Origin: an uncultured delta proteobacterium
GTDB lineage: Bacteria > Desulfobacterota > Desulfobacteria > Desulfobacterales > SG8-13
Reading direction: 5' to 3'
NCBI GenBank assembly: GCA_963848135.1
Contig: CAWKCK010000017.1
Coordinates: 962,538-1,026,537, forward strand
Length of the DNA stretch: 64,000 bases
Shown here: positions 1,299 through 27,781 of the stretch, one piece after another
Numbering within the stretch: the stretch's first letter is position 1
Layout of the letters: every line of letters starts with the position of its first letter
Translations under genes and position numbers: made by a program
Notes under the pieces: model-generated
Databases searched by the model: none
Told to the model about the DNA's origin: nothing
Seen by the model: the letters and a program-made list of their open reading frames with translations, nothing else

Positions 1299-2510
1299 TT
1301 AGCACACACGGAACTCGAACAGGCTTTCCTTCTTGGCTTCGGCACTGGCCAAAACCTGTTCGATATTGCTTCCCTTTTGGGCCTCGACAATACCGGCACT
1401 GACCGTAAAACAGGTGTTCGGTTGGGGCAGGATCTCCACGAGATCCTCGGCCTTGATCAACTTGGCTAGCTTGGCACAAAAAGCCCGTGCCTGCGCTTTG
1501 TTCGTATTGGCAAGCACCAGCAGTATTTTGTTCATACCGTAGCGTGAGCAGGTATCGGTGATACGAATATGGTGCTGCAACTGTAGGGCAAAATTTTTCA
1601 ACGCCAACTGGCTGGCTTTGTATCCAATCGATTCAATAACTTCATCGAGATCTTGAACGGTCAACAACACCAGTGAAAATGCTATTTGGTGGCTCTGCAG
1701 GCGCAACATCTCTTCTCGGAATTTTCTATCACCGGCTTGCTGTGATGCCAGCCCCGTGAGGTCGTCGCGACGACTTTCAAGACCAGTGATAAATTGCCGG
1801 ACCAGCGCGTCTTCCGTGTACTGAATCTCTTCGGCTGTACCTTCGAAAAGTATTTTGCCTTCCTCCAGCATGGCAATGCGTTGGGAAATGTAGAAGATAT
1901 TGGGGATGTCGTGACTGACGACAACACCCGTGAATCCGAATTTTTTCTGGTAATCCGAGATCATGCTGTAAACGACACCTTTGCGGATCGGATCCAAGCC
2001 GGTTGTGGGTTCGTCAAAAAGAACGATTTCTGGATCCGTCACTAATGCCCTGGCCAGCGCCACCCGTTTCTTCATACCACCTGAAAGGTGAGAAGGATAT
2101 TCATCGTCGATATTGTGCAGATCGAGTTTCGCCATTTTATCATGTACCCGATCACGAATTTCTTCCCGCGGCAGGGATGATTTTTCCGCCAGCGGCAACG
2201 CAATGTTCTCAAATATCGTCATCGAGTCGAAAAGGGCCGTACCCTGAAACATGTAACTGAACTTGCGTTTAATGTCCGCCCGTTCCTTTTTGGGGGCAGC
2301 GCCCAAAGGTGTACCGTTGAAAAGTATCTCCCCCGAATCCTGCCGGACAAGACCGATGATATGTTTTAACAGAACACTCTTACCGACACCGCTTTTACCG
2401 ATGATCGAGGTGATCAACCCCTTGTAGATACTGAGGTTGAGACCGTCAAGAACCCGGTGGTTGCCGAAACTTTTGGATACATTCTTAAATTCTATTAACG
2501 GCTGGTCCAT
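1299..2510 (-). CDS. mlaF: MlaF-type ABC ATPase fused to a C-terminal degenerate GGDEF domain
   Basis: Walker A GKSGVGKS, LSGGMKKRVALARAL, DEPTTGLDP; then DDLTGL...RITDTCSRYGMNKI...TVSAGI, a GGDEF-fold pattern. Confidence 0.9.
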   Translation of the reverse strand: MDQPLIEFKNVSKSFGNHRVLDGLNLSIYKGLITSIIGKSGVGKSVLLKHIIGLVRQDSGEILFNGTPLGAAPKKERADIKRKFSYMFQGTALFDSMTIFENIALPLAEKSSLPREEIRDRVHDKMAKLDLHNIDDEYPSHLSGGMKKRVALARALVTDPEIVLFDEPTTGLDPIRKGVVYSMISDYQKKFGFTGVVVSHDIPNIFYISQRIAMLEEGKILFEGTAEEIQYTEDALVRQFITGLESRRDDLTGLASQQAGDRKFREEMLRLQSHQIAFSLVLLTVQDLDEVIESIGYKASQLALKNFALQLQHHIRITDTCSRYGMNKILLVLANTNKAQARAFCAKLAKLIKAEDLVEILPQPNTCFTVSAGIVEAQKGSNIEQVLASAEAKKESLFEFRVC

Positions 2511-2516
2511 CAAACC

Positions 2517-5665: not shown

Positions 5666-6295
5666 ATGAAAGCCCAACGAATCCTCGTTGTTGAACAAAA
5701 CGGAAGTGGTGAGCAAAAGGTCAAGGGTCTTTTGACCCATGGCAGCGATTCATTTTTGGTTGAACGCTGGAGCATCGACACGCCGTTGGAACCGGTAATC
5801 GATGATGCCTCCGAATATCTACCAAAGAAAATCGACGCCGATCTCGTTCTCGATTTTTTGAAGCATCCGGACCTGACCCAGGATCTGGCGGAAATCTGCC
5901 GGCGTCAGGGAATCCCGGTTGTGGCTTCCGGGAAAAAACTGCGGCTGGAAGGGGTTTTGACACCGCCGACCTGATGTGGCCTTCCCCGGCAGGTGGGCCT
6001 GGGACAATACGGTGAACGATTCGGTGCACCGGAATTTTCGGTGCGATTGTCGGCCGGAAAGATTGCGAGCGTCGAGGTGGTTCGCGGCGCCCCATGCGGG
6101 GCGACATGGGAGGCCGCCCAGCGCATCATCGGCTTGCCGAAGGAGGAGGCGATCGTGCGAATCGGACTCGATGTCCAATATTACTGTACAGCCGACCCGG
6201 CCGGATGGGATCCGATTCACGGAAAGAGCCCCGTCCACTTTGCCGGTAAAGTCCACTCAGCCGCTTTAATGAGGGCCTTGTCAAAGCTTTCCTGA
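5666..6295 (+). CDS. DUF166-like protein, probable selenoprotein (Sec at codon 103)
   Basis: ORFs 5666-5974 and 5993-6295 share a frame and join through TGA 5972-5974 as TPPT-U-CGLPRQ; VVRGAPCGAT and YYCTA motifs; SECIS-like hairpin at 5983-6004. Confidence 0.8.
5983..6004 (+). promoter_or_regulatory. Candidate bacterial SECIS element
   Basis: Stem TCCC(C)GGC/GCC(T)GGGA with loop AGGTGG starting 16 nt after the UGA and a G in the second loop position. Confidence 0.6.
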
Positions 6296-6566
6296 ACCGA
6301 CCGAAGGGCACCCGAATCGGCGCATTGCCCGCATCACCGCATGGCTCGAATCTGTAACCCGTATATTTAAGATCTGACGACTTATTCATCTCCCCCCCCT
6401 CGGCGGCATGGTATCGGTTCACAAGGTTGCAGTGTCCGATGGGCTTAAAACCACAGAATTGTATCCGTTTAAACGGTGCCGTGGATGTGCAAGGCGTCGA
6501 GCGCGCAGACGTACTATTGGGCTTCAAGTGCCCACCAACAAAGTAGATGCGGCGCCCTGTGAAGGC

Positions 6567-7835
6567 TTACACGGCAGGACCCTTTCGCCGCGCAATAACG
6601 TAATACGTCAGCCCGGCAAACAGAATCGAGGGCAATGATCCCCCAAAGGCGGTCATCTTGACCGCCAGCCAGTAAAGGGCGAATCCGGCCGCCCAGGACA
6701 CCAGAGCAACGATATTGTAGCCTCCCGTGTACCAGTACCCCCCCCCGATGGTGTAAAGAGCATCGAGATCCAGTCTTCTCCGACGGATGAAAAAGTAATC
6801 CGTCAGCACGACCCCGAACAAAGGGACAAACATCGAGCCGATGAAAAGCAGAAAATTTTCATACTGCTCCATGGGAAAAACCAGGGCGACCAGGATAGAC
6901 AAGATCCCGGCAGCCCACATGACGGCCCCGGATCCGATCCGCTGCGAGATGTTCAGCATCGAGCATGTGGCTGAGTATACATCGGGGAAATCGGAGGTAA
7001 TGCTGGACAATACCACCATAATCAAGGCCGGCAGGGCCAGCCCGATACTGCCCATGAGCTGCAAAATCAGCAATCCCGGGTCGGCCTCACCAGTGACCAG
7101 CGTGGCTGCCAACCCCAGCAGGTACATCCACGAGGAAACAAGAAAATAGCCCCACCACGTATTCCAGAACGCCGGGGCGGTCTTCCTGGCAAATCTGGCG
7201 TAATCGGCCACCAGCGGCATCCATGAAATCGGCATGGCGATCACGATGTCCATACCGATCATAAAAGGCATTCCCTGGGAGGGCATCCTTAAAATGTCGC
7301 CGCCAAACTCCCTGAAAGATGCCCAGGTCATCAGAACGATAACAAGCAAGAGGGCAACAACGGCCGCGGTTTGTAAAAATTTCCAGATCGGCCGACCCGT
7401 ATGCAACGCCCATAGAAGTGTTCCAATCCCGATAATTACGATCCAGAAACGATCGAGGGCCAATAGGCCACCGACGGATTGGCCAAGCATGGCGCCGGCC
7501 CTGCCTCCGATAATGAGCATGATGGAGGCCCATCCAATGAGCTGGATGATGTTCAACACCGCCGCCAGGTTCGACCCGCGAATGCCAAAGGCCGGCCGCA
7601 CGGACACCATCGACATGATCCCGTGGTCCGACCCGATGATGCCACCCAGAGACATGAAGGTGTTTCCCAGGATGTGCCCCACGACAATCGCCCAGAACCC
7701 TGCCCAGAATCCCATCGGCGCCAGGAAACCGCCGGCCCAGATCTCGGCCAGAGATATGGCCACACCGGCCCACAATAGTAGGTAATCGAATCCGCCGAGG
7801 TTTCTATCGCTTTGAATTATCGGTTTGATGTTCAT
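6567..7835 (-). CDS. cytX: Hydroxymethylpyrimidine transporter CytX (NCS1 family)
   Basis: Polytopic membrane protein with LWAGVAISLAEI and AMPISWMPLVADYARF; upstream TPP riboswitch. Confidence 0.88.
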   Translation of the reverse strand: MNIKPIIQSDRNLGGFDYLLLWAGVAISLAEIWAGGFLAPMGFWAGFWAIVVGHILGNTFMSLGGIIGSDHGIMSMVSVRPAFGIRGSNLAAVLNIIQLIGWASIMLIIGGRAGAMLGQSVGGLLALDRFWIVIIGIGTLLWALHTGRPIWKFLQTAAVVALLLVIVLMTWASFREFGGDILRMPSQGMPFMIGMDIVIAMPISWMPLVADYARFARKTAPAFWNTWWGYFLVSSWMYLLGLAATLVTGEADPGLLILQLMGSIGLALPALIMVVLSSITSDFPDVYSATCSMLNISQRIGSGAVMWAAGILSILVALVFPMEQYENFLLFIGSMFVPLFGVVLTDYFFIRRRRLDLDALYTIGGGYWYTGGYNIVALVSWAAGFALYWLAVKMTAFGGSLPSILFAGLTYYVIARRKGPAV

Positions 7836-7885
7836 CGGATACCTGTGATTATTTTTTTAAGATCCCCGAGTTACCGGATGACCAA

Positions 7886-7916
7886 CAAAAAACCGACCAG
7901 ATGAAGGTCGGTCGGT
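7886..7916 (-). terminator. Intrinsic terminator (expression platform of the TPP riboswitch)
   Basis: Minus strand ACCGACC-(loop)-GGTCGGT followed by a T-run, between the aptamer and the cytX start. Confidence 0.75.
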
Positions 7917-7921
7917 GTTCT

Positions 7922-8025
7922 GCCAGTTCCCTCCACCGGCATTACCCGGATCAGGTTCAGCGGTCGGACCCACGTTTACGCGGCAGGGTCCCTCTCAGCC
8001 CAGTTCAACCGAGCTCCCGCAAAGC
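7922..8025 (-). ncRNA. TPP (THI-box) riboswitch
   Basis: Minus strand GGGAGC...GCTGAGA...GACCGCTGAACCTGATCCGGGTAATGCCGGTGGAGGGAA matches the TPP aptamer consensus. Confidence 0.96.
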
Positions 8026-8046
8026 TTTGATTATCGTCTCGCCTGA

Positions 8047-8075
8047 GGTTTAGGCCATGACTATTCTGCTGTCAA
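8047..8075 (-). promoter_or_regulatory. Putative sigma70 promoter of the riboswitch-cytX unit
   Basis: TTGACA-N17-TAAACC just upstream of the aptamer. Confidence 0.6.
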
Positions 8076-8127
8076 GTTCTTTCATGCCGCCGGGGCTCGC
8101 CGAGCGCATAAAGTTTATATCGGATTG

Positions 8128-9003
8128 TCATTTCTTGGGGAGGATTTCGATCGCCGCACGCTTCACGATCATTTCCGGGTCGTTCAGTCCAGCCTCGATC
8201 TCTTTGCGCAACGGTTTCAGATCGCGGGGGGGAAGAACAGCAAGCGCACGGAAGGCCAACTCCCGGATCCGCGGTTCGGCATCCGTCATGCACTTCCGGT
8301 AGACTTTCAGGTGGTCTCGAACGTCGCTGACCAAACCCAGAAGGACCAGGGCGTCAATACGAAGTTCATCAGTCTTTCGGGCAATAAACCGCAAGTAGAC
8401 CTTGGCTGTCTCGGTGCGCTTGGCACTAAACCGCCATAAGTTATATAGAATACTTCGCCTTTGCTCCAGTTCGGCGTTATCGAGTCGCTCGAGAAGCAAA
8501 CCGAAAATACGATCGTCTTGCAAGTTCACCAGGGCGTTGACAGCTGCCTGCTGCACCTGTGAATCCGGATCATACAACAGCTCGATCAGCGGAATTGCGG
8601 CCTGGACATTACCCTTCCACCCCAGGGCGAAGGCGGCATTGGCGCGCAAATCCGGATCCTCGTCTCTAAGATTCTGCACGAGCCGATCAATGAGCGCCTG
8701 GGGCTGCTTCAGGAAGGGCATGGTAACGCTGAGTTGAATCGATGCATCGTGACGCACCAATTCGTCTTCGGTTGGATCCGTCATCATTTCGTAGAGCGGC
8801 GAGGCAATTTCCTGTTTTGCAAACCCGCCCAGTAGCAGAACGATGCGTTGCTTCAGCTGTCGGTCTGCATGCCGAAGTGATTTAAGCAGGATCGGAACGG
8901 CAAGATCCCGTTCATTCAGAAAGAGCGCCAAGTCATCGATGTAAGAGCGGGATTGCTCCAACAGGCGTTTCTGCGGCTGGAAAGGTATAATCTTTTTTTT
9001 CAT
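8128..9003 (-). CDS. HEAT/PBS-lyase-type repeat protein
   Basis: Repeats such as LRDEDPDLRANAAFALG, LYDPDSQVQQAAVNAL and LNDPEMIVKRAA; start could instead be 9048. Confidence 0.8.
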   Translation of the reverse strand: MKKKIIPFQPQKRLLEQSRSYIDDLALFLNERDLAVPILLKSLRHADRQLKQRIVLLLGGFAKQEIASPLYEMMTDPTEDELVRHDASIQLSVTMPFLKQPQALIDRLVQNLRDEDPDLRANAAFALGWKGNVQAAIPLIELLYDPDSQVQQAAVNALVNLQDDRIFGLLLERLDNAELEQRRSILYNLWRFSAKRTETAKVYLRFIARKTDELRIDALVLLGLVSDVRDHLKVYRKCMTDAEPRIRELAFRALAVLPPRDLKPLRKEIEAGLNDPEMIVKRAAIEILPKK

Positions 9004-9060
9004 TGGTCGTTCGCCTAATACATCTTCCGGTTCACAGATACGCGCCATAATTGGGTCGTA

Positions 9061-10158
9061 TCAATATAAGGACTGGGTCGTTTTCGCATCGAAGATATGA
9101 AGCTGTCCCAGATTTAAGGCCATATCCAGAGTTTCACCCACCCGAACCGGCCGTTGACCGTCACATTTCCCGATAACCCTTATGCCTTGCAAGTCCATGT
9201 GGATATTGGTCTCACTTCCGAGAGGTTCGACAACGGTCACAACCCCGGATACTGTGTAACGGTTTGGCGGACTTTCGTTACCATCGGCCGGGATGATATC
9301 TTCGGTGCGCAGACCCATGATGACCTCGGCGTTGTCTTTTACTGAAACATCCGGCTTCGGAGGCACGGGTATTTGAAGCGAATCGTTGAAGGACAGGTAA
9401 AATCCTTGCTCGGAAAATCTTGTTTTAGCCGGCACCAGATTCATTGGCGGCGATCCGATGAAACCGGCAACGAACGTATTGTTCGGATGTTGAAAAATTT
9501 CGATTGGCTCTCCGATCTGCTCGATTCGCCCGTCGCGCATGACCACGATCCGGTCAGCCAGAGTCATGGCCTCTACCTGATCATGGGTGACGTAGATAAT
9601 CGTCGTGGACACCTTGTGATGGAGCTGTTTAATTTCGGTCCGCATCTGTGTCCGCAGTTTGGCATCCAGATTGGAGAGGGGTTCATCGAAAAGAAAAACA
9701 GAAGGATTTCGAACAATTGCGCGCCCCATCGCCACCCGTTGACGTTGACCGCCGGAGAGCTGGTGTGGTTTTCGCTTCAACAGATCCTGAAGTTCCAGCA
9801 TTTTCGCGGCAACTTGAACCCGGTTTTCGATCTCAGCTCGCGGTTTTTTGGCCAGTGTCAACCCGAAAGCCATGTTCTTGAAAACGTTCATATGGGGGTA
9901 GAGGGCATAATTCTGGAACACCATGGCCGTTTTTCGATCTTTTGGTGCCACGTTGTTGACGATACGATCATCGATCCAAATTTCACCATCGGTAATCTCT
10001 TCCAAACCGGCAATAAGCCGCAGCACGGTCGACTTGCCGCAACCCGAAGGGCCGACCAGCACAACGAACTCCTTGTCTCCGATTTCCAGATCGATGCCAT
10101 GGACGACTTCCGTCCTGCCGAAGCGTTTGACAATATTTTTCAATACGACACTTGCCAT
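9061..10158 (-). CDS. ugpC: sn-glycerol-phosphate/sugar ABC ATPase UgpC
   Basis: [42 protein letters not shown] tail; divergent from ugpBAE. Confidence 0.92.
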   Translation of the reverse strand: MASVVLKNIVKRFGRTEVVHGIDLEIGDKEFVVLVGPSGCGKSTVLRLIAGLEEITDGEIWIDDRIVNNVAPKDRKTAMVFQNYALYPHMNVFKNMAFGLTLAKKPRAEIENRVQVAAKMLELQDLLKRKPHQLSGGQRQRVAMGRAIVRNPSVFLFDEPLSNLDAKLRTQMRTEIKQLHHKVSTTIIYVTHDQVEAMTLADRIVVMRDGRIEQIGEPIEIFQHPNNTFVAGFIGSPPMNLVPAKTRFSEQGFYLSFNDSLQIPVPPKPDVSVKDNAEVIMGLRTEDIIPADGNESPPNRYTVSGVVTVVEPLGSETNIHMDLQGIRVIGKCDGQRPVRVGETLDMALNLGQLHIFDAKTTQSLY

Positions 10159-10507
10159 GGGTCATTCCTGTGGTTAACAACGTGTATGCTGGTCGCCTTT
10201 TGACGACCCATCCAAACCATGTTTCCGGCGCCGACGTCAAGCGTTCATTCGTATTCGCACGCAAACGGCAGTGTCGTATCGCCATTTAAGGACAGCCTTT
10301 AGACGAACGCCCTTATCTTTGGTTTGAGGGTACCCTGCGAGAAATTGAAAAGGCTTGAGAAATCATTTCACTTCGGCTACGGTGACTTTGCCGGACACGC
10401 CTGCCGGCGGCATCGCTCGGTTGCGGGAACCGGGGTGCATTCTATTCACCTTCGAAGTATCCTTTGGAACCGTTTTTAACCGTTTTTGAATCAACGAGGA
10501 GGCAGGT

Positions 10508-11833
10508 ATGAGCAGAAGAAACAAATTTTGGATCATGACAGTCATGGCCGCAATAATGGTTTGGAACGGTAGTGCCCTGGCCGCACCCACCGAAATTCAC
10601 TGGTGGCACGCCATGCGCGGTGCCCGCGGTGAAACACTCAAAAAAATCGTCGATGCGTTCAACGCTTCCCAGACAGAATTTGTCGTTATCGAGACCAACA
10701 AGGGCAACTATGATGAAACTGTCAATGCCGGCGTCGCGGCCTACCGGGCCAAGAAACAACCCCACATACTGCAGTCATTTGAAGTCGGCACCTTAACGAT
10801 GATGCTGTCGGGTGCCATCTACCCGGTCTACAAGCTCATGGCCGACCAGGGCTACAAGATCGACTGGTCCACATATCTACAACCCGTGCTGTCCTACTAC
10901 GTCGATGAAAACAGCAACCTGCTCTCCATGCCGTTCAACTCTTCTACCCCGGTCATGTACTACAATGTCGACCTGTTCAAGAAAGCCGGCATCGATCTGC
11001 TTTCCAAGACCGACCCCATCACTTGGGACCAACTAGGGGAGATCACCGCCAAACTGGTGGCCTCGGGCGTCAAGAAAGGGATGGTCACCTCCTGGCAATC
11101 ATGGGTTCAGGTGGAAAACTACAGTGCCATTCACGACCTGGCCTTCGCCACCAAGGCGGACGGCTACGAGGGGTTGGATTGCGAGCTGGTAATCAACAAC
11201 CCCCAGGTGGTCAACCACCTGCAAAGATTAAAGACCTGGATGGGGGACGGCCGCTTCTCATACGAGGGGCAAAAATACCAGGGGCCCCAAGCCGCTTTCA
11301 TCGCTCAGGATGCCGCCATCTTGATGGAATCGATCAGCGGTATCGGCAACGTCAAGAAAAATGCTAAATTTGCATGGGATCTGGCCCCCCTGCCTGTCGA
11401 ATCGAATATGAAAGCCCCCCAGAACAGCATCATCGGAGGGGCTTCCCTGTGGGTGATGAACGGCCACGACAAGAAAGATTACAAAGGGGTGGCCGCCTTT
11501 CTGGATTTTCTGGCCCAAACCGACATGCAGGAGCTTTGGCACCAGGAGACCGGATATTTCCCCATTACGATCACCGCTTATGAATCCCTTAAAGCCAAAG
11601 GGTATTTCGATGTCAATCCTTACCAGGAAGTGGGCATTAAACAGATGACCCGTCGGAACCCCACCAAAAACTCACGCGGTTTGAGGTTGGGCTATTTCGT
11701 GCAGATCCGCAATATTATCAACGAAGAGATGGAACTGATCTGGAACGGCGGGAAATCGCCCCAGGAAGCAATGGATGCGGCTGTGTCGCGCAGCAACGCG
11801 AAGTTGCGTGAGTTCGAAAAAACGTACAAGTAA
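10508..11833 (+). CDS. ugpB: Glycerol-phosphate ABC substrate-binding protein UgpB
   Basis: Signal peptide; WWHAM, SMPFNSSTPVMYYN, PQNSIIGGASLWV and SRGLRLG motifs typical of UgpB. Confidence 0.92.
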   Translation: MSRRNKFWIMTVMAAIMVWNGSALAAPTEIHWWHAMRGARGETLKKIVDAFNASQTEFVVIETNKGNYDETVNAGVAAYRAKKQPHILQSFEVGTLTMMLSGAIYPVYKLMADQGYKIDWSTYLQPVLSYYVDENSNLLSMPFNSSTPVMYYNVDLFKKAGIDLLSKTDPITWDQLGEITAKLVASGVKKGMVTSWQSWVQVENYSAIHDLAFATKADGYEGLDCELVINNPQVVNHLQRLKTWMGDGRFSYEGQKYQGPQAAFIAQDAAILMESISGIGNVKKNAKFAWDLAPLPVESNMKAPQNSIIGGASLWVMNGHDKKDYKGVAAFLDFLAQTDMQELWHQETGYFPITITAYESLKAKGYFDVNPYQEVGIKQMTRRNPTKNSRGLRLGYFVQIRNIINEEMELIWNGGKSPQEAMDAAVSRSNAKLREFEKTYK

Positions 11834-11995
11834 TCGAATAGACCTTAAGTAAAGGGAGCTTTTCTCTCAAATCAACAACCGGTGTTCCGGAGCGGTGGAC
11901 GACGCCTGCCCGGAGCACCGGCCTGTTTAGATCTCTTTCCCAATCGGATGTGTACCGAGCCCCCGGCAACATCCGGTCGTTCGAATGCGACCACT

Positions 11996-12886
11996 ATGAC
12001 CAAGCGTTCCCTTTTCACATCCCGAACACTGCCCTATCTACTGATCTTGCCCCAGGTGATCGTAACGCTGACCTTTTTCTATTGGCCGGCCGCCCAGGGT
12101 CTGCTTCAATCGGTCATGCTCAGCGATCCGTTCGGGCAACGCAGCCGTTTCGTATGGTTCGATAATTTCATCAGTATTTTCACTGATCCCCTCTACCTGA
12201 AATCCATCGGTATCACCCTGACATTCAGTTTTGCCACCGCCGCCGTTTCCATTTTCTTCGGTCTGTTCATCGCCAGTATGGCCAACCGGGCCTTGAAAGC
12301 CAAGGCGGCGATTCGAACCATGCTGATCTGGCCCTACGCCGTTGCTCCGGCGATTTCCGGCATCCTGTGGCTCTTTCTACTGCACCCGTCATTCGGCGTA
12401 GTGGCCTTTTTTATTCAGCGCCAACTCGGCATCGACTGGAATCCGGTGCTCAGCGGAACAGATGCCTTCATCATGGTGGTGCTGGCCAGCGCCTGGAAGC
12501 AAATCAGTTATAATTTCGTCTTCTTTATGGCCGGTCTCCAGGCGATCCCGCACTCTCTGATCGAAGCCGCAGCCATGGACGGCGCCGGTCCGATCCGCCG
12601 ATTCTGGGCCATCACTTTTCCATTGCTGTCGCCAACTTTCTTCTTTCTCATGGTAATGAATGTCATTTACGCCTTTTTCGAAACCTTCGGTGTCATTCAC
12701 ACGGTAACTCAGGGAGGACCGGGCGGCGCCACCACCACTCTGGTCTATAAGGTCTATCAAGACGGGTTCATCGGGTTGAACCTGGGGTCATCAGCAGCGC
12801 AATCGGTGGTTCTGATGGCCTTGATCGTAATCATCACGGTGCTGCAGTTCCGTTTCGTGGAACGCAGAGTCCAGTATACAATATGA
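11996..12886 (+). CDS. ugpA: ABC permease UgpA
   Basis: LPYLLILPQ, WKQISYNFVFF, EAAAMDGA; start set at ATG 11996. Confidence 0.92.
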   Translation: MTKRSLFTSRTLPYLLILPQVIVTLTFFYWPAAQGLLQSVMLSDPFGQRSRFVWFDNFISIFTDPLYLKSIGITLTFSFATAAVSIFFGLFIASMANRALKAKAAIRTMLIWPYAVAPAISGILWLFLLHPSFGVVAFFIQRQLGIDWNPVLSGTDAFIMVVLASAWKQISYNFVFFMAGLQAIPHSLIEAAAMDGAGPIRRFWAITFPLLSPTFFFLMVMNVIYAFFETFGVIHTVTQGGPGGATTTLVYKVYQDGFIGLNLGSSAAQSVVLMALIVIITVLQFRFVERRVQYTI

Positions 12887-12889
12887 GCC

Positions 12890-13810
12890 ATGGTTGAACG
12901 AACGCCCATTCTCGATACGCTAACCTACGGATTTCTGATGCTGGGAATCTGTATCGTCTGCTTTCCCATCTTCTACACCTTTGTGGCGGCCAGCCTTCCC
13001 CTGGAAGACGTCTCCCAAGTGCCGATGCCTCTATTTCCGGGAGACCAGTTCTGGATGAATACTCGAGCGGCCTGGGAACAGGGCAATCTGGGCCGTCAAC
13101 TCTTAAACTCCTTCGTCATGGCCTCTGGGATCACCATCGGCAAAATCGTGGTCTCCATTCTGGGTGCTTTCTCGATTGTCTATTTCGACTACCGGTTCCG
13201 GAAAGTCGCCTTTGCCACCGTCTTTTGCACCCTGATGCTACCGGTGGAAGTACGCATCCTCCCCACTTACGAAATCGCTGCCAATCTCTTCGGTCCCTTA
13301 CAGTGGCTGATCGACACCCTGCATCTCGACAGCCTCGTTCAATGGTGGGTGGGAAACGATATCGACATCAGCTTGGAATGGAGCCTGTTGGACAGCTACA
13401 CCGGCCTGATCCTGCCCCTGGTGGCCTCAGCCACCTGCACCTTCCTTTTCCGCCAGTTCTTTCTTACTGTTCCAGAAGAGCTGTGTGAGGCGGCTAAATT
13501 GGACGGGGCTTCGGCCATGAAGTTTTTTTACAGGATCCTCTTGCCGCTATCCAAAACCAACATCGCCGCTTTGATCGTGATCGAATTTGTCTACGGCTGG
13601 AACCAATATCTCTGGCCTCTGCTCATCACCACCAACCCGGACATGACCACTGCCGTCATCGGACTGCAGAACCTGATTCCTCAGATCGACGACATTCCCT
13701 ACTGGAATGTAGCAATGGCCGGCGCCCTGTTGGTCATGATGCCGCCCATCCTGGTTGTGTTGTTGATGCAACGCTGGTTCGTCAGGGGTTTGGTGGAAAG
13801 AGAAAAGTAA
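12890..13810 (+). CDS. ugpE: ABC permease UgpE with a ~31-aa loop insertion
   Basis: TLMLPVEVRI, FLFRQFF, EAAKLDGA, YGWNQYLWPLL. Confidence 0.92.
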   Translation: MVERTPILDTLTYGFLMLGICIVCFPIFYTFVAASLPLEDVSQVPMPLFPGDQFWMNTRAAWEQGNLGRQLLNSFVMASGITIGKIVVSILGAFSIVYFDYRFRKVAFATVFCTLMLPVEVRILPTYEIAANLFGPLQWLIDTLHLDSLVQWWVGNDIDISLEWSLLDSYTGLILPLVASATCTFLFRQFFLTVPEELCEAAKLDGASAMKFFYRILLPLSKTNIAALIVIEFVYGWNQYLWPLLITTNPDMTTAVIGLQNLIPQIDDIPYWNVAMAGALLVMMPPILVVLLMQRWFVRGLVEREK

Positions 13811-15144
13811 TGACACATTCTGAAAAGAAAGCGCTTGTCGATCAGGCCCAGTGTGCTGAGCGGTGCAGCTGCGGCGGCTCACATGCCATACCCGATATCC
13901 TCGCTTACACCGGTAAAGATGCCTTCCAAATGCTGGCGACCGACGCCAACCGTTTCCTGGCAGATAAAAAGGCCCTCGTGCTCGATGACGAAAACACCCA
14001 TAGAGCCGCCGGTACCGCCGTGACCGATGCACTGAAAACCGCTGCCGTCGATCACCGGGTCATCACCCTCCCGGGAGATTCCCACTTGACCGATAGGCTT
14101 GCCGCCGATGTCGAGCGCCAGGTCGCCGGATGCCCCTTGATTATCGCCGTGGGGTCCGGTACGGTGAACGACCTCGGAAAATACACGGCCCACCAATTAG
14201 GCATTCCTTACTGGTGCGCTCCCACGGCGCCGTCCATGAACGGTTACACTTCTTCCATTGCAGCCGTGAAGGCGGCCGGGGTGAAAAGAACCCTGCCCTG
14301 CCTGCCTCCAAGGACACTCTACATTCAACCGGAGGTCCTTCGCAAAGCGCCCCTGAAACTGCGCCAAGCCGGATATTGCGATGTAATGGCCAAATCGGTA
14401 TCGGATGTCGACTGGCAAATCGAATCCCTCCTTTTCGGCGGTTCTTACTGCACCCTGCCGTCTGCCATCGTCGCCCCGTCCGAGGTTCTCTACCTTGACC
14501 AACCGGAGAACATCGCCGCCGGGGAAATAGCATCAGTGGATGCCCTGTTTCACGGCCTCTTGATTTCGGGCATCGCCATGAGCCTAGCCGGATCCAGTGC
14601 ACCAGCCTCCGGTGGAGAACATCTCCTGTCCCACTTTTGGGACATGCGCGAAGAGTTGACCGGGCGGGTGGTTGAGTATCACGGCCTCCAGGTCGGTGCC
14701 GGTATCGTCATGTCAGCCGTCTGCTATGAAAAATTGCGGAAAGTAAAAAGAGAAACACTGCGGCCTGAAGCCGAAAAGCGCTTCAAGGCTGATGCTGAAG
14801 AGATACAAGCTGTCTGGAAGCCATTCGCCCCCGGCGTTCGCAAACGCTTCAACATGAAAAAAGCGCTTTTGCTCCAATTCGATGAACTTCTGCCGCGGAA
14901 GTGGATGAAGATCGAACCGCTGTTGGCTACCGTCCCCCCGGCCAGGGTTTTTCTCGAGCGGATTCGACGGACAGGTTACCCGATGAACCTTTCTTCGCTG
15001 AATCTGTCGCCGGACGAGTTTATGCTGGCCGCACACAACGCCCGCACAATCCGGGAGCGGATCACCATTCTCGATCTGGCCGCACATACCGGTGTGCTGG
15101 AAGCCGCCGCCGAAGAGGCCCTGGAATTGCTGCTGGATAATTAA
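13810..15144 (+). CDS. sn-glycerol-1-phosphate dehydrogenase (EgsA/AraM family)
   Basis: IAVGSGTVNDLGKY, PTAPSMNGYTS, ASGGEHLLSHFWDM and HGLQVG motifs; start overlaps the ugpE stop (TAATG). Confidence 0.85.
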   Translation: MTHSEKKALVDQAQCAERCSCGGSHAIPDILAYTGKDAFQMLATDANRFLADKKALVLDDENTHRAAGTAVTDALKTAAVDHRVITLPGDSHLTDRLAADVERQVAGCPLIIAVGSGTVNDLGKYTAHQLGIPYWCAPTAPSMNGYTSSIAAVKAAGVKRTLPCLPPRTLYIQPEVLRKAPLKLRQAGYCDVMAKSVSDVDWQIESLLFGGSYCTLPSAIVAPSEVLYLDQPENIAAGEIASVDALFHGLLISGIAMSLAGSSAPASGGEHLLSHFWDMREELTGRVVEYHGLQVGAGIVMSAVCYEKLRKVKRETLRPEAEKRFKADAEEIQAVWKPFAPGVRKRFNMKKALLLQFDELLPRKWMKIEPLLATVPPARVFLERIRRTGYPMNLSSLNLSPDEFMLAAHNARTIRERITILDLAAHTGVLEAAAEEALELLLDN

Positions 15145-15163
15145 CTCAAAAAGTGAGGTAAGT

Positions 15164-16330
15164 GTGGAACCGAACGATCAGGCCTACATTAAACTACAAA
15201 AGCACTTGGACAACCAGGCGGTTGGATTCCCCGCAACGCGTACAGGGGCTGAGATTAAACTTCTAAAACACATATTCACGCCACAAGAGGCTCAAATAGC
15301 CACTTTTTTAAGCTATAAACCAGAGCCGGTTGAAACCATATGGGATCGGATTCGGCCGCTGGTCGACTCAGCCGAACAACTGGAGCAGCACCTCGATCGA
15401 ATACAGAAAAAAGGGGGAATCGAAACCAAAATAAAGTCAGGCAAAAAACTTTACTGCAACGCACCGCTTGTTGTGGGAATGTTCGAGTTACAGATTGGCC
15501 GACTCACCCCCGAGTTCGTCAAGGATTTCAACGAATATACTTCCAACCGAAAATTCGGTATCGAATTCTTGAGCACCGAGCTTCCCCAGATGCGCACCAT
15601 CCCAGTGGCCAAAAGCATTCAACCGCAACACCAAGCGAGCACGTTCGATGAGGTCACGACCCTGATTCAACAGGCCGATGCGCCCTTTGTCATTATCGAA
15701 TGCATCTGCCGCAAGAAAAAATCGATGGAAGGAAAAACCTGCAAGATAACGGATAGAAAAGAGACCTGCCTGGCTATCGGCAGTACCGCCCAGACTGTCC
15801 TGCTGAGCGGCAATGGCAAAGAGATTTCCAAAGAAGACGCGTTATCGATCATAGAAGAAAACCAGGCACAGGGATTAGTTCTACAACCGTCCAACACGAA
15901 AAAGGCCGAATTCATCTGCTCGTGTTGTGGATGTTGCTGCGGGATGCTCGGCATCTACAAATCCTTGCCCAAACCATTGGAGTTCTGGGCGGCAAACTAC
16001 CAGGCGGTCTTTGACCCTGACACCTGTATCGGATGCGGGGCTTGTGCAGAGCGCTGCCAGGTAAATGCAGTTCGTGTTTCCGAAAAAAAGGCGCGGGCTG
16101 TCGTCGATCAGCACCGATGTCTCGGTTGTGGTGTTTGCATCTCCGACTGCCCGACCGGTTCCATTTCCCTGTTGAAAAACACCACTGAAGTCAAGCCGCC
16201 CCAAACGCGGGAAGATCTTTACGACACCATCATGGCGAGCAAGAAAGGCCGTCTGGAAAAATTAAAGCTGACAGGAAAGCTCATTGGCGATGTGGTTCGA
16301 TCGAAACAAACGAACCTTTTGAAAAAATAA
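15164..16330 (+). CDS. Iron-sulfur protein with a C-terminal 2x[4Fe-4S] ferredoxin domain
   Basis: CICR, CSCCGCCC, CIGCGACAERCQ, CLGCGVCISDCP; GTG start at 15164 after GAGGT. Confidence 0.85.
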   Translation: MEPNDQAYIKLQKHLDNQAVGFPATRTGAEIKLLKHIFTPQEAQIATFLSYKPEPVETIWDRIRPLVDSAEQLEQHLDRIQKKGGIETKIKSGKKLYCNAPLVVGMFELQIGRLTPEFVKDFNEYTSNRKFGIEFLSTELPQMRTIPVAKSIQPQHQASTFDEVTTLIQQADAPFVIIECICRKKKSMEGKTCKITDRKETCLAIGSTAQTVLLSGNGKEISKEDALSIIEENQAQGLVLQPSNTKKAEFICSCCGCCCGMLGIYKSLPKPLEFWAANYQAVFDPDTCIGCGACAERCQVNAVRVSEKKARAVVDQHRCLGCGVCISDCPTGSISLLKNTTEVKPPQTREDLYDTIMASKKGRLEKLKLTGKLIGDVVRSKQTNLLKK

Positions 16331-17197: not shown

Positions 17198-17243
17198 TAA
17201 TCATGTAAACCCCCCAATAAAACTGGGGGGTTTACAGATGATT
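17195..17243. repeat. Palindrome built from IS200-like end sequence; likely bidirectional terminator
   Basis: TGTAAACCCCCCA-ATAAAAC-TGGGGGGTTTACA between convergent genes; flanks match the GATGATTATTA terminus of the repeats at 46.8 and 53.1 kb. Confidence 0.65.
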
Positions 17244-23142: not shown

Positions 23143-23391
23143 GGCCGCCTCCCTGGGTTAAACATCATTAATTAACAATGGATCATGGCAGGCTAATCAA
23201 AAAGTAGATTCAACTACTTAAAGCACCCTGCCATATTTCGGAATCTATTTTTGAATAGCGGTAAAAAAGAATGCGCCTCTAAAGAATTGGTAACAAACTT
23301 GCTACGGGGACACAAGCGAAAACGAATCCCCCGTGTCGCTGGCGATTGTTCCTGTCTGCATCCCCTTCTTAATGCGGATGGCAAATGAAAA

Positions 23392-23420
23392 CCTCACGAG
23401 ATCCTAACACAATCCTAACA
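23392..23420 (+). promoter_or_regulatory. Putative Pho box upstream of pstC
   Basis: CCTCACG/CCTAACA/CCTAACA at 23392, 23403 and 23414 (11-bp period). Confidence 0.75.
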
Positions 23421-23514
23421 GTAGATCCTTAAATACAGATCACGCTTCACGGCAAGCTCGACATCAATCGGCCGCTACACAACCGGGTAACGCAAGGGCA
23501 GAAAATTGAATTCA

Positions 23515-24930
23515 ATGACAAGCAATTATATGGCAGTTTTTATATCGCCATCCACTCTCATTGCCGTTCTCCTGGCACTGTCTTCCGTGGCTTATATCTT
23601 GGGCCGTCGCCGCGCCTTCGCAGTGGCGGGCACCCCTGACAAGGTCAAGACACTCCATTCGCGCCCCACCTATTATGGCGTCCTGACAGCGATCTGGTGC
23701 GGCATTCCAGCACTGATTCTTTTTGGTTTCTGGCTCGCTTTTGAGCAGGCAATCATCACCAACCTGGTGGTGGCTGATTTACCCGAAAATATTCGTAGCC
23801 TGGCGCCGGATCGCCTGAATCTGGTCGTCAACGACATAAAGAACCTTGTCAGCGGAAACATTGTCTCCGGGCGTATCGATCCGTCCATGCAAAAGGCAGC
23901 GGCCCATTTTCGTCACCTGGTCAATGTCAGCCATGGTGCCCTGATGGTCGTTGTCCTTGCTCTTGCGGTCCTGGCCACCTTGATCGTCCGGCTTAAAATC
24001 ACCCCGAAGATGCGCGCCCGGAATCATGTCGAAAACATTACCATGGTCATTTTGATAGGCTGTTCGACTGTTGCCATATTTACGACGATTGGCATCATCC
24101 TATCGGTATTGTATGAGGCCATACGTTTTTTTAACAAAATATCGATCTGGGAATTTCTGTTCGGCTTGACCTGGAGTCCCCAGATGGCCATACGTGCCGA
24201 CCAGGTCGGCTCTTCCGGTGCCTTCGGTTCTGTGCCGGTTTTTGTCGGCACGCTTCTGATTTCGGCCATCGCCATGACTGTCGCCGTTCCGATCGGCCTG
24301 ATGTCGGCCATTTATCTTTCTGAATATGCCAATCCCCGGTTTCGTTCGACGGCCAAGCCATTACTGGAAATCCTGGCCGGAATTCCAACGGTGGTTTACG
24401 GTTTCTTTGCCGCCCTTGTGGTGGCACCAATGATCCGAAACGCGGGTACGCTCGTTGGTCTCGACGTGTCATCCGAGAGCGCCCTGGCAGCGGGTCTGGT
24501 CATGGGCATCATGATCATACCGTTCGTTTCTTCGATCTCAGATGACGTCATTAATGCCGTACCGCAGGCGATGAGAGACGGTTCTTACAGCCTCGGTGCC
24601 ACCAAATCAGAGACCATCAAACAGGTTGTGATCCCAGCTGCGCTGCCCGGCATCGTCGGCGGTGTCCTTCTGGCCATATCCAGAGCCATTGGGGAAACCA
24701 TGATCGTTGTCATGGCCGCCGGGCTGGCAGCCAATCTGACCCTCAATCCCTTAAGCGCCGTCACGACGGTGACCGTCCAGATTGTCACGCTGCTGGTGGG
24801 AGACCAGGAATTCGACAGCCCAAAAACTCTGGCTGCTTTTGCCTTGGGCCTCCTGCTGTTTGTCATCACCTTGGTCCTCAACATCATCGCTCTTTATGTC
24901 GTGCGCAGATACCGTGAACAATATGAATAA
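23515..24930 (+). CDS. pstC: Phosphate ABC permease PstC with N-terminal extension
   Basis: LHSRPTYYG, EILAGIPTVVYG, SRAIGETMIV; start uncertain between 23506, 23515 and 23530. Confidence 0.95.
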   Translation: MTSNYMAVFISPSTLIAVLLALSSVAYILGRRRAFAVAGTPDKVKTLHSRPTYYGVLTAIWCGIPALILFGFWLAFEQAIITNLVVADLPENIRSLAPDRLNLVVNDIKNLVSGNIVSGRIDPSMQKAAAHFRHLVNVSHGALMVVVLALAVLATLIVRLKITPKMRARNHVENITMVILIGCSTVAIFTTIGIILSVLYEAIRFFNKISIWEFLFGLTWSPQMAIRADQVGSSGAFGSVPVFVGTLLISAIAMTVAVPIGLMSAIYLSEYANPRFRSTAKPLLEILAGIPTVVYGFFAALVVAPMIRNAGTLVGLDVSSESALAAGLVMGIMIIPFVSSISDDVINAVPQAMRDGSYSLGATKSETIKQVVIPAALPGIVGGVLLAISRAIGETMIVVMAAGLAANLTLNPLSAVTTVTVQIVTLLVGDQEFDSPKTLAAFALGLLLFVITLVLNIIALYVVRRYREQYE

Positions 24931-26224
24931 GTCTTCCCATAACAATTCTTCGAATACCAAGAGTTCAACCCGCACCATCGATATCGTCAACCGGAGTCTT
25001 TCCCGCCGCTACAAGGCTGAACGGAGATTCCGGTTCTACGGCCTTTCGGCTATCATTCTTAGCCTGGTTTTTCTGTCTTTCCTCTTTTTCAGCATCATCA
25101 GTAAGGGCTATCCGGCCTTTCAGAAGACATACGTCAAACTGGACATTTTTTATGATTCCGATGTGCTGCGCCAGGACGCGCTTTCCACGGCCGATTACTC
25201 TGCATTGGTCAAGGCATCTCTTCGAAGCCTGTTTCCGGAAGTATCGAGCCGCAGGGACAAGCGAAACCTTTATCGTTTGGTCAGTTCGGGGGCGGCCTTC
25301 CAATTGCGCGCAATGGTTCTCAGTGACCCGGACGTCATCGGCCGGACCCAACCGGTGTGGGTCCCGGCCGATGATGACCTGGATATGCTGATAAAAGGTC
25401 ATTCTGATCGCAGTGCAGCGGAAAGCGACCGCCGGCTCAATGATAAACAACTGTCCTGGATCGAGACTCTCGAAGGCGATCACCGGATCGAACACCGCTT
25501 CAACCGTACGTTTTTCACTGCCGGCGACTCCCGCGAACCGGAACTCGCCGGCGTCTGGGGTGCTGTGATGGGGTCTTTCCTGACCTTGGTGATCACCCTT
25601 TTGTTGTCATTTCCCATCGGGGTCGCCGCTGCGATTTACCTGGAGGAGTTTGCGCCCAAGAACCGTTGGACCGACCTGATAGAGGTCAACATCAACAACC
25701 TGGCGGCCGTGCCGTCGATAGTTTTCGGGCTGCTGGGGCTGTCCGTTTTTCTCAATTTCTTCGGCCTTCCCCGCTCCGCACCACTTGTGGGGGGCCTGGT
25801 ACTCACCTTGATGACCCTGCCGACCATCATCATTGCCAGCCGGGTGTCCCTACAGTCGGTTCCGCCCTCTATTCGCGAAGCGGCATTAGGTGTGGGTGCT
25901 TCCAAGATGCAGATGGTCACCCACCATGTCCTGCCGTTGGCCTTGCCCGGTATGCTGACCGGAACGATCATCGGCATGGCCCGGGCACTGGGCGAATCCG
26001 CCCCCCTGCTGATGATCGGTATGGTGGCTTTTATCGTGGACATTCCGCGGGGATTCACAGACCCGGCCACAGTTCTACCGGTTCAGATTTACTTGTGGGC
26101 CGACAGCCCGGAACGTGCATTTGTTGAACTCACCTCCGCCGCTACTATCGTTCTGCTGGCATTCTTAATTGCCATGAACGCGACAGCCGTTATCCTGCGC
26201 AAACGATTCGAGCGCCGCTGGTAA
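24923..26224 (+). CDS. pstA: Phosphate ABC permease PstA
   Basis: NINNLAAVPSIVFGLLG, ARALGESAPL; start at ATG 24923 overlapping pstC. Confidence 0.95.
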   Translation: MNKSSHNNSSNTKSSTRTIDIVNRSLSRRYKAERRFRFYGLSAIILSLVFLSFLFFSIISKGYPAFQKTYVKLDIFYDSDVLRQDALSTADYSALVKASLRSLFPEVSSRRDKRNLYRLVSSGAAFQLRAMVLSDPDVIGRTQPVWVPADDDLDMLIKGHSDRSAAESDRRLNDKQLSWIETLEGDHRIEHRFNRTFFTAGDSREPELAGVWGAVMGSFLTLVITLLLSFPIGVAAAIYLEEFAPKNRWTDLIEVNINNLAAVPSIVFGLLGLSVFLNFFGLPRSAPLVGGLVLTLMTLPTIIIASRVSLQSVPPSIREAALGVGASKMQMVTHHVLPLALPGMLTGTIIGMARALGESAPLLMIGMVAFIVDIPRGFTDPATVLPVQIYLWADSPERAFVELTSAATIVLLAFLIAMNATAVILRKRFERRW

Positions 26225-26233
26225 GGCAATCAT

Positions 26234-26272
26234 CTAACAAAAAACTAACGTTCCTCTCATGCCGACTTAACG
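26234..26272 (+). promoter_or_regulatory. Putative Pho box upstream of pstS
   Basis: CTAACA/CTAACG/CTCATG/TTAACG at 26234, 26245, 26256 and 26267. Confidence 0.8.
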
Positions 26273-26450
26273 ATGGTTCTTCATATTCAGTCGAGGTTGA
26301 GATGCACGCTCATTGGAAAGAACGCAAAATGAACAAACATAATCTTAGCAATCCACCATCGAACGCCAGTGGTCGTTTACATTTAACCAAAAAGTTAGGT
26401 CCTTTCGGAATTAACCATCTAACTCACTAAGTCATTTCAAGGAGGATGTA

Positions 26451-27506
26451 ATGTTCAAGAAAGCTATTTTATTCACCATCGTCCTTTTAATTGCCGTGGC
26501 CGGTTTTAGCGGCGCGGCCTCTGCCCAATCCGCCAGAGACTACATCAGCATCGTCGGCTCTTCCACGGTGTACCCGTTCGCGACGGTTGTCGCCGAGCGG
26601 TTCGGTAAAACCACCCAGTTCAAGACCCCTAAAATCGAATCGACCGGTTCCGGCGGCGGGCTCAAACTCTTTTGCGCCGGTGTCGGCACCGAGCATCCCG
26701 ACATCACCAATGCCTCACGGGCAATTAAGAAGTCCGAATATGAAAAATGTATGGCCAATGGTGTGAAGGAAGTAGTGGAAGTCAAGATCGGCTATGACGG
26801 CATCGTGGTGGCCAACGCTAAAAAAGCCAAGCCGCTGAACCTTACCCGCAAGGATCTTTTCCTGGCCCTGGCAAAAGACGTCCCCGACCCCAGTGGCGCT
26901 GAAAACACTGTTCCCAATCCCTATAAAACCTGGAAAGACGTGAATTTTTCTCTGCCCAACGTCAAGATCGAGGTTCTCGGTCCGCCGCCGACCTCCGGCA
27001 CGAGAGATGCTTTCGTCGAACTGGCCATGGAAGCCGGCGCCAAGGAGTTTGGCTGGCTCAAGGCACTCAGAAAAAGTGACAAGAAAAAATTTAAGGGGAT
27101 CGCGCACACAGTTCGCGAAGATGGCGCCTATGTCGAGGCTGGCGAAAATGATAACCTGATCATTCAAAAGCTCGAGGCTAACCCCAATGCCTTGGGGATT
27201 TTCGGCTTCAGTTTCCTGGACCAGAACACGGATAAGATCCAGGGTTCTTATATCGATGGTGAGAAGCCGACCTTTGAAAACATCGCCGATGGCAAGTACC
27301 CGGTCTCCCGCCCGCTGTTCTTTTACGTCAAGAAAGCGCACGTGGATGCCATCCCGGGTATGAAGGACTACCTTGTTGAGTTCACCAGCGAGAAGTGCTG
27401 GGGTGACGATGGTTACCTGGCAGAAAAAGGGTTGATTCCGATGCCGAAGGCGGAACGGGAACAATTCAGTAAAGACGTCGCGAGCCTGAAACCGCTCTCT
27501 ATGTAA
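26451..27506 (+). CDS. pstS: Phosphate ABC substrate-binding protein PstS
   Basis: Signal peptide; IVGSSTVYPF, ESTGSGGG, GPPPTSGTRDAF, YPVSRPLF. Confidence 0.95.
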   Translation: MFKKAILFTIVLLIAVAGFSGAASAQSARDYISIVGSSTVYPFATVVAERFGKTTQFKTPKIESTGSGGGLKLFCAGVGTEHPDITNASRAIKKSEYEKCMANGVKEVVEVKIGYDGIVVANAKKAKPLNLTRKDLFLALAKDVPDPSGAENTVPNPYKTWKDVNFSLPNVKIEVLGPPPTSGTRDAFVELAMEAGAKEFGWLKALRKSDKKKFKGIAHTVREDGAYVEAGENDNLIIQKLEANPNALGIFGFSFLDQNTDKIQGSYIDGEKPTFENIADGKYPVSRPLFFYVKKAHVDAIPGMKDYLVEFTSEKCWGDDGYLAEKGLIPMPKAEREQFSKDVASLKPLSM

Positions 27507-27514
27507 ATTGATAC

Positions 27515-27781
27515 CTACCCCTGGAAATTTCATCAATTGGAGGCTTTTATGGCCAAGGCATTTCGAGGTGATGCTGTAGTCAGTCTACCGCGATCCTCGA
27601 ATAACGCCGGCCATGGGAGCCTCCGGTTGACCCGAAGGGTGCAATCTTTTCAGCTCTTTCATTAGATCTTGGGGAGGTACAAAGTGTCCCATGTTTATGC
27701 GGTTCATAAATTTGACCAATGCACCGATATGGCTTCCTTTTTTTCTACTCGGTGAAAAGATTTCATGAAATATTCGGGCTA
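27515..27781. mobile_element. MITE family A, copy 1 (267 bp)
   Basis: Imperfect TIRs CTACCCCTGGAAATTTCAT...ATGAAATATTCGGGCTA; colinear with and the same length as 45575-45841. Confidence 0.75.

Follow-up and report, generated by a model that had tools for sequence, protein, structure and literature searches.

We analysed a 64,000-nucleotide (nt) stretch of contig CAWKCK010000017.1 (assembly GCA_963848135.1, positions 962,538 to 1,026,537) from an uncultured delta proteobacterium of the Desulfobacterales, hereafter the window, which carries a ugp cluster for glycerol-phosphate import together with a gene for an AraM-like dehydrogenase (Table 1). All four Ugp subunits scored above curated NCBIfam cut-offs, and the cluster comprises two CUT1 permeases and a MalK-type ATPase with a binding protein. 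The initial annotation had described ugpB, ugpA and ugpE followed by the dehydrogenase through a TAATG overlap and then, 19 bp later, by an Fe-S protein gene. The sequence agrees with this layout: the ugpE/dehydrogenase junction is a one-base stop/start overlap, TAATG, and the Fe-S gene starts at GTG 15164 behind GAGG. The ugpA reading frame is open from GTG 11882, and ATG 11996 is its likely start (homologues have 296 amino acids (aa)). The ugpC gene is divergent from ugpB, with 349 nt between them. It had also been stated that the cluster lacks ugpQ and sn-glycerol-3-phosphate (G3P) dehydrogenase genes; indeed, neither a ugpQ-type glycerophosphodiester phosphodiesterase (GDPD) nor a G3P dehydrogenase was found between 6.5 and 19.6 kb of the window, and both exist elsewhere in the genome.

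Table 1. Features of the ugp cluster and its neighbours, in window positions.
Feature	Position	Strand	Basis or remark
ugpC, MalK-type ABC (ATP-binding cassette) ATPase	9061-10158	-	NF008653, 502 bits (cut-off 432); ABC_tran, OB_MalK, TOBE_2
ugpC-ugpB intergenic region	10159-10507	.	two conserved blocks and tandem AACCGTTTTT x2
ugpB, periplasmic glycerol-phosphate-binding protein with signal peptide	10508-11833	+	NF008211, 464.6 bits (cut-off 411)
ugpA, permease	11996-12886	+	NF007852, 351 bits (cut-off 335)
ugpE, permease	12890-13810	+	NF008210, 340 bits (cut-off 297)
AraM-like (Fe-ADH_2) dehydrogenase, 444 aa	13810-15144	+	PF13685, 91.5 bits
Fe-S protein, 388 aa	15164-16330	+	2x[4Fe-4S] and Cys-rich CSCCGCCCG run
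Secreted protein, 276 aa	16367-17197	+	no Pfam or NCBIfam match
HEAT-repeat protein	8128-9048	-	HEAT_2, 79.6 bits; 12 nt downstream of ugpC

A survey of the ugp plus egsA/araM neighbourhood, which had been proposed together with the initial annotation, demonstrated that the linkage is conserved and specific to one dehydrogenase clade. A collection of 5.8 billion proteins yielded 753 relatives of the dehydrogenase among 8000 candidates scored, the best 120 of which are 436-462 aa long and 52-97% identical. In a quick maximum-likelihood tree of 68 homologues from all loci collected, the window dehydrogenase fell inside a clade of 17 rows, here called clade A, with an SH-aLRT (approximate likelihood ratio test) support of 100 and a stem of 1.63 substitutions per site. 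Clade-A genes were examined at 22 loci (the window, L002-L009, L012-L021, L028, L073 and L139), and an organophosphate importer adjoins the gene in 16 of them: Ugp in nine, an SBP_bac_6-type ABC transporter in six and a tripartite ATP-independent periplasmic (TRAP) transporter in one. Open reading frames (ORFs) for CUT1 permeases accompanied distant homologues (30-38% identity) in 2 of 57 loci, and the 125 neighbour proteins scanned at distant loci belonged to mixed families (tRNA synthetases, guanylate kinase, efflux pumps), many of them having no Pfam match. The context counts exclude 13 of the 80 metagenome loci, for which ORF calling returned no match.

The order of genes is retained across a wide range of divergence. 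In L002-L006, whose dehydrogenases are 74-80% identical to that of the window, the divergent ugpC and the run ugpB-A-E-dehydrogenase are kept, with a TGATG overlap; translational coupling of ugpE to the dehydrogenase is therefore a shared feature of the window and these loci. At larger distance, the arrangement recurs in L012 (58% identical, 4-nt gap) and L021 (56% identical), and L139, from another family of the same order, has a dehydrogenase 51% identical that follows ugpE after an 18-nt gap. A divergent ugpC is likewise found in L002-L006 and L139 and in the majority of same-order ugp clusters compared. What is conserved is ugpC/ugpBAE together with the dehydrogenase. Clade A is rare and patchy in genomes: a sample of the phylum gave a close dehydrogenase match in 1 of 401 genomes (G000) and two more matches at 32-33% identity, and the dehydrogenase was present in 2 of 95 genomes of another class. 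UgpB homologues (E<=1e-60) occurred in 43 of 201 genomes of the order.

The fold and active site of the dehydrogenase resemble those of known sn-glycerol-1-phosphate (G1P) dehydrogenases (G1PDHs). Its best sequence match in the PDB was Bacillus subtilis AraM (9h4x, E 4.8e-37), and the same structure ranked first in a Foldseek search (E 3.6e-22, TM (template modelling) scores 0.77/0.86) with an AlphaFold2 (AF2) model of high confidence (pLDDT, the predicted local distance difference test score, 93.3). A Clostridium homologue, the archaeal structures 4rgq, 4rfl and 5fb3, and glycerol dehydrogenases were further matches in the top ten. With AraM the enzyme shares the two-domain Fe-ADH_2 fold with a long C-terminal helical domain, as well as the Asp/His/His set. 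Residues D191, H271 and H291 and the G115-x-G117-T118..D121 stretch align with AraM and the Methanocaldococcus jannaschii G1PDH and do not vary among 38 clade members; the GGEHxxSH and C-terminal RxR motifs are likewise common to the three enzymes and invariant in the clade. We take D191, H271 and H291 to be the metal ligands; these candidate positions do not differ between clade A and the wider family, nor do the active-site motifs around them. Asp/His/His Zn ligands are given, under a different numbering, in PMC6737245. Unlike AraM, the enzyme carries a clade-invariant Cys19/Cys21/His25 set (13864-13884; 38 clade members) and lies in importer operons. Many proteins of the wider bacterial family have a C-x-C-G-x-x-H motif. 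The three residues may form an extra metal site, and residues 19-25 precede the regions covered by the HMMER alignments to solved G1PDHs. A literature search returned no paper on the AraM structure.

We then compared the window UgpB, which is encoded by a single copy in the genome, with binding proteins whose ligands are known. Bacterial G1P uptake was described for UgpB and GpxB in PMC12718374 (PNAS, December 2025). According to that paper, Phaeobacter sp. MED193 grows on G1P, its UgpB supports growth on G1P, and the protein binds G1P with a dissociation constant (Kd) of 2.36 µM and G3P with a Kd of 0.80 µM. The contacts reported there are Tyr64, Glu88, Ser143, Trp188, Trp191, Ser266, Gly303, Tyr342 and Arg393, of which the two Tyr and two Ser residues hold the phosphate, Glu, Gly and Arg hold the hydroxyls, and the two Trp residues form a clamp. 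The best PDB match of the window UgpB was 9lff (E 1.2e-122), and E. coli 4aq4 matched with E 6e-117. The results showed that the window protein is identical at all nine reported contacts (Y68, E92, S146, W196, W199, S275, G311, Y350 and R401). We transferred the contacts manually through the 9lff alignment, adding 20 to the residue numbers of the paper to obtain chain numbers, an offset adopted because all nine positions then fall on the named residue types. Since the nine contacts of a UgpB that binds both G1P and G3P are kept, the importer is expected from its sequence to accept both enantiomers and is probably not G1P-selective. Any selectivity would therefore rest on the dehydrogenase.

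The best reading, which we hold with middling confidence, is non-selective import of glycerol phosphate followed by oxidation of sn-G1P to dihydroxyacetone phosphate (DHAP). UgpBAE(C) would import glycerol phosphate without choosing between the enantiomers, and the dehydrogenase, presumably translated from the same transcript, would use NAD(P)+ and a bound divalent metal to oxidise the sn-G1P fraction to DHAP. DHAP would enter glycolysis, or GpsA would convert it to sn-G3P, by which the enantiomer would be inverted with no net redox change. G3P itself would be handled by a GlpD-like dehydrogenase and PlsY encoded elsewhere. We infer the substrate (G1P), the oxidative direction, the cofactor and the physiological purpose. 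The logic is that of GlpD/GlpABC, in which imported glycerol phosphate is also converted to DHAP, but the window enzyme is non-homologous to these proteins and would use the opposite enantiomer and a pyridine nucleotide rather than quinone. The initial annotation had proposed a catabolic module for G1P. Its core gains from the conserved importer-dehydrogenase linkage, the UgpB contacts and the AraM-like fold, whereas the probably non-selective importer and the missed cut-off of the curated G1PDH model NF002022 speak against the proposal as it was worded.

Several observations weigh against this reading. Under standard conditions, oxidation of glycerol phosphate with NAD is energetically unfavourable, which may explain why G3P catabolism normally uses quinone-linked enzymes. 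Against NF002022, a G1PDH equivalog model built on archaeal EgsA, the dehydrogenase scored 158.1 bits where the cut-off is 413. Archaeal EgsA (G1PDH, EC 1.1.1.261; 4rgq, 5fb3) belongs to the same superfamily and has the same catalytic motifs, but the window enzyme is about 100 residues longer, and the direction proposed for it is oxidative. Identity to AraM is only 26% over the fold alignment. The Arg of the SSRPASG motif, present in AraM and in the M. jannaschii and Pyrobaculum G1PDHs, is replaced by Ala264 (SSAPASG); this Ala does not vary within clade A, and almost every bacterial homologue of about 440 aa has A or S at the position. As for gene context, no importer was seen at 6 of the 22 clade-A loci, each of which is truncated by a contig end on one or both sides; at one of these, L015, 1.9 kb of upstream sequence is importer-free. 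Only 1 of 20 other same-order ugp loci (L139) has the dehydrogenase, and a same-genus genome has no dehydrogenase in the 570 nt remaining after ugpE.

The same fold might instead act on another substrate, such as sn-G3P under anoxia, a polyol or keto phosphate, or a phosphodiester before cleavage. We regard this as unlikely. The score far under the NF002022 cut-off, the long stem that separates clade A and the replaced SSRPASG Arg are in its favour, and so is the variety of partners. The second kind of importer consists of a 430-aa SBP_bac_6 binding protein, a fused double permease of 558-600 aa and a TOBE_2 ATPase, and the dehydrogenase is the first or last gene of the run at these loci. The nearest solved structures to the binding protein are the P5PA (pyridoxal-5'-phosphate) binder 6wce (E 3e-25) and 4r72 (E 4e-22), the latter presumably the sugar-phosphate binder AfuA; it is also near 4r6y, a putative binder of 2-aminoethylphosphonate (2-AEP). 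Clade A thus pairs with AfuA/PhnS/P5PA-like importers and with a TRAP importer as well as with Ugp. The TRAP case is L008 (Desulfarculaceae, 6170-10728), where a divergent TRAP transporter lies within 3 kb and a sulfatase-family hydrolase gene stands upstream of the clade-A gene; a second, divergent paralogue, 30% identical and retaining SSRPASG, follows it. However, AraM is the best fold match, and the enzyme has the candidate metal positions and active-site motifs of both AraM and archaeal G1PDH. Moreover, the commonest partner is a bona fide UgpB with its glycerol-phosphate contacts intact, and G3P is already served by the GlpD-like enzyme.

The background genes of the genome, which is 98.65% complete, bear on both enantiomers. 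Elsewhere in the genome we found glpK, gpsA, two copies of plsY and a GlpD-like dehydrogenase (DAO_C, 74.8 bits; NF008899, 298.6 bits against a cut-off of 360), so G3P has its usual routes there. There are four GDPD matches in the genome, none of them in the window. PcrB/GGGPS (PF01884) had 0 matches in this 98.65% complete genome, and the control search matched 7 of 14 named genomes. These results bear on a biosynthetic role, in which the dehydrogenase would, as B. subtilis AraM does, supply G1P by reduction of DHAP, here to a G1P-based lipid or polymer, and would be located behind ugpE for co-regulation only. AraM, the only characterised bacterial member, is biosynthetic according to PMC4244643 and PMC13400652; bacterial PlsY and PlsC can use G1P (PMC13400652), and the distant homologues have no importer alongside. 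AraM pairs with PcrB to make ether lipid (PMC4244643), however, and the fact that no known G1P consumer was found here argues against a role of the AraM-PcrB type. In addition, the clade is rare and patchy and accompanies importers of three unrelated kinds, with its gene at one or the other end of the operon, and an enzyme with such a role has no evident need of an importer. We consider the biosynthetic role quite improbable.

Whether oxidation of G1P to DHAP would serve carbon or phosphorus supply was approached through the regulation of the cluster. A complete Pho island lies at 23143-38887, about 10 kb from the ugp cluster with its genes 4-25 kb away, and contains pstC, pstA, pstS, an insertion sequence (IS), pstB, phoU, a phoH-like gene, PhoU_div+PHO4, phoR and phoB. 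The IS element, a DDE transposase at 27947-28900 between pstS and pstB, splits the pst operon, and pstB keeps a Pho-box-like site with one mismatch at the IS boundary (28897-28912). From the pst, phoU and phoB promoters (four regions, 10-25 kb downstream) we derived the pattern YTAAC-N6-YTAAC, which had six exact matches against 0.12 expected, all upstream of pstC, pstS, phoU and phoB. The organism-specific Pho box consists of YTAAC repeats at an 11 bp phase in two or three tandem units. With one mismatch allowed there were 13 matches, including the pstB and PHO4 upstream regions. The pattern was absent from the ugpC-ugpB intergenic region up to one mismatch, and the statement of the initial annotation that no Pho-type box lies upstream of ugpB holds with the organism's own pattern. 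A 10-mer, CCATCCAAAC, which occurs in the ugp intergenic region and upstream of phoB, was dropped as a candidate motif, as it had 7 matches against 6.7 expected.

The gene slot after ugpE was also compared among the 20 same-order loci. A Cof-type haloacid dehalogenase (HAD) hydrolase (Hydrolase_3, 262-302 aa) adjoins ugpE in seven of them (L126, L128, L131, L133, L136, L137 and L138), once co-directionally with a 7-nt gap and six times convergently, and may be an alternative means of processing imported glycerol phosphate. Phospholipase A1 stands next to ugpE in one other locus and an FGGY kinase in another. On account of these HAD hydrolases, phospholipase A1 and FGGY kinase, we conclude that the slot tends toward phosphate-ester or lipid enzymes, of which the dehydrogenase is one minority solution.

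These data bear on the possibility that the same reaction serves phosphorus supply under phosphate limitation, as with E. coli ugp, the phosphate passing into glycolysis and ATP without a phosphatase. The Pho island (pstCAS-pstB, phoU, phoH-like, PhoU_div+PHO4, phoRB) is nearby, a PhoU_div (DUF47) and PHO4 pair stands directly after the dehydrogenase-importer run in L014 and L016, and an HAD phosphatase is often beside ugpE in related clusters. Because of this neighbourhood and of L014 and L016, a phosphorus role is possible, but we think it somewhat unlikely given that the organism's Pho-box pattern, at up to one mismatch, is missing from the ugp promoter region. For the proposal that the module serves carbon or energy rather than phosphorus, the evidence points both ways: the absent Pho box is in line with it, whereas the nearby Pho island and the importer-adjacent PhoU_div+PHO4 genes of L014 and L016 weaken it. 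As a separate observation, a monomeric isocitrate dehydrogenase gene lies upstream of the dehydrogenase-importer run in L014 and L016.

The Fe-S gene that follows the dehydrogenase in the window is a neighbour and not a member of the module. The protein has a C-terminal 2x[4Fe-4S] ferredoxin domain and the CSCCGCCCG run; only Fer4-type domains were matched, with no CCG-domain match, and no glpA or glpB is in the cluster. It thereby differs from GlpC, since it is without the CCG domain. The gene follows the dehydrogenase in the window, L002 and L003 only, with gaps of 19, 85 and 332 nt, and not in L004-L006, L012, L021 or L139. In L004 a Flavin_Reduct protein is encoded 13 nt after the dehydrogenase, and in L006 a 200-aa ORF occupies the same place; the downstream neighbour is a pyridoxal-phosphate-dependent (PLP) enzyme in L139, a chromate-transporter fragment in L021 and an unrelated ORF in L012. 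The L012 ORF was considered as a counterpart and rejected, as it is related to neither the Fe-S protein nor the 276-aa one. The Fe-S family itself gave 4081 matches at E<=1e-10, the best 120 of them at least 69% identical, and the few organism-named records belong to Desulfobacterales or Deltaproteobacteria. Its invariant motifs are CICRKK, C193, C202 and CSCCGCCCG, before the two ferredoxin clusters. Naming is inconsistent across sources (PreA, RnfB, PorD), the AF2 model was poor (pLDDT 52.9, 22-row alignment), and an Atlas search with the protein returned unnamed 4Fe-4S families only.

A functional link would exist if the Fe-S protein were a redox partner of the dehydrogenase and pulled the unfavourable oxidation by taking its electrons. 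The 19-nt spacer, with no terminator-like site above background between the genes, and the other redox protein (Flavin_Reduct) in the same place at L004, and probably at L005 and L006, are consistent with such a partnership. On the other hand, the Fe-S gene is adjacent in only three of the nine Ugp-linked loci, with the wider gaps in L002 and L003, unrelated genes (PLP enzyme, chromate transporter, uncharacterised ORF) lie downstream elsewhere, and clade A is far smaller and less conserved than the Fe-S family. The partnership is therefore very improbable. Since its adjacency is limited to the nearest relatives and its family is large and independent, we treated the gene as a neighbour; of the earlier inclusion of the Fe-S gene in the module, the adjacency stands, but conserved membership does not, being seen beyond the window in L002 and L003 only.

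The HEAT-repeat, Fe-S and 276-aa secreted protein genes are lineage-only neighbours, outside the mechanism. The HEAT-repeat gene is kept in L002 and L003 and not in L004-L006, and the gene for the 276-aa secreted protein in L002 and L003 only. A strong bidirectional hairpin (17204-17236) follows the latter gene.

The ugpC-ugpB intergenic region contains two blocks (about 10207-10250 and about 10350-10460) that are almost invariant in five loci, the remaining intergenic sequence having diverged. Block 1 (10207-10250) includes the palindrome CGGCGCCG, and its 14-nt core recurs in the ugpC-ugpB intergenic region of the more distant L126. A weak promoter (TTGAGA-17-TACGGT) may lie in block 2, along with a hairpin-containing leader some 115 nt long. 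Immediately ahead of the ugpB ribosome-binding site, at 10467-10492, AACCGTTTTT occurs twice in tandem with a 10-bp period; it resembles half of a Pho-box word (TTAACC), with the wrong phase and position. RNAalifold on five close sequences gave 45 predicted pairs, four with a compensatory change, and thus little covariation. Rfam contained no family matching the ugpB leader (best E 0.95). By blastn the leader was absent from 20 same-order loci at E<=1e-3, with short words only at E<=5, and scans of the intergenic region for sigma-70 promoters and terminators found nothing.

Two further observations concern more distant parts of the window. At 1299-2513 (- strand), the ABC ATPase of an mlaFEDC-like cluster carries a GGDEF (diguanylate cyclase) domain fused to its C-terminus. 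At 53184-54817 (- strand), a CitMHS-family transporter spans two ORFs, the second of which encodes PAS domains; this may reflect a frameshift or an atypical fusion.

Compared with UgpBAEC of E. coli and Phaeobacter sp. MED193, the importer described here is alike in that its four subunits pass the cut-offs and its UgpB retains all nine contacts given in PMC12718374, including the Trp-Trp clamp. It is unlike them in that ugpC is divergent and not last, ugpQ and a Pho box of the organism's own type are lacking, and the dehydrogenase overlaps ugpE. GpxBCD, a PhnD-family G1P/G3P importer (PMC12718374), is a second, unrelated importer family for these substrates, and clade A is likewise associated with more than one importer; however, the second importer of clade A is of the SBP_bac_6/PhnS2/AfuA/P5PA type with a fused double permease, not of the PhnD type. 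The Results and Conclusions of PMC12718374 do not name the enzyme that processes G1P inside the cell. The literature searched, with most subscription journals outside its coverage, described no importer-linked or catabolic G1PDH. The importer-coupled AraM-like dehydrogenase is a candidate for this unnamed intracellular step.

Beyond import and oxidation of G1P, a more speculative and doubtful extension is that the clade-A enzyme acts as a 'chirality gate' for enantiomer-blind importers, removing sn-G1P immediately on entry and, together with GpsA, inverting it to sn-G3P without net redox change. The initial annotation had suggested archaeal lipids as the source of G1P; this part of it is not supported, as nothing ties the G1P to archaeal rather than bacterial sources. 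Phosphatidylglycerol (PG) head groups are a bacterial source of G1P. Lipoteichoic acid (LTA) is another (PMC7086022).

If the chirality gate were real, G1P of archaeal handedness or derived from PG or LTA would be salvaged, and PlsY and PlsC would be kept from making wrong-handed phospholipids. A hallmark archaeal enzyme of the 'lipid divide' would then have been recruited by bacteria to erase G1P, and the intracellular step left unnamed for the G1P transporters described in 2025 would be filled. If the importer-coupled dehydrogenase does carry out this step, bacterial G1PDH homologues would gain a catabolic or salvage role besides the biosynthetic one, the gene would serve as a marker for G1P recycling in anoxic sediments, and the finding would bear on the homochirality of bacterial membranes. 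Should the enzyme use another substrate, clade A would still mark a new importer-linked oxidoreductase.

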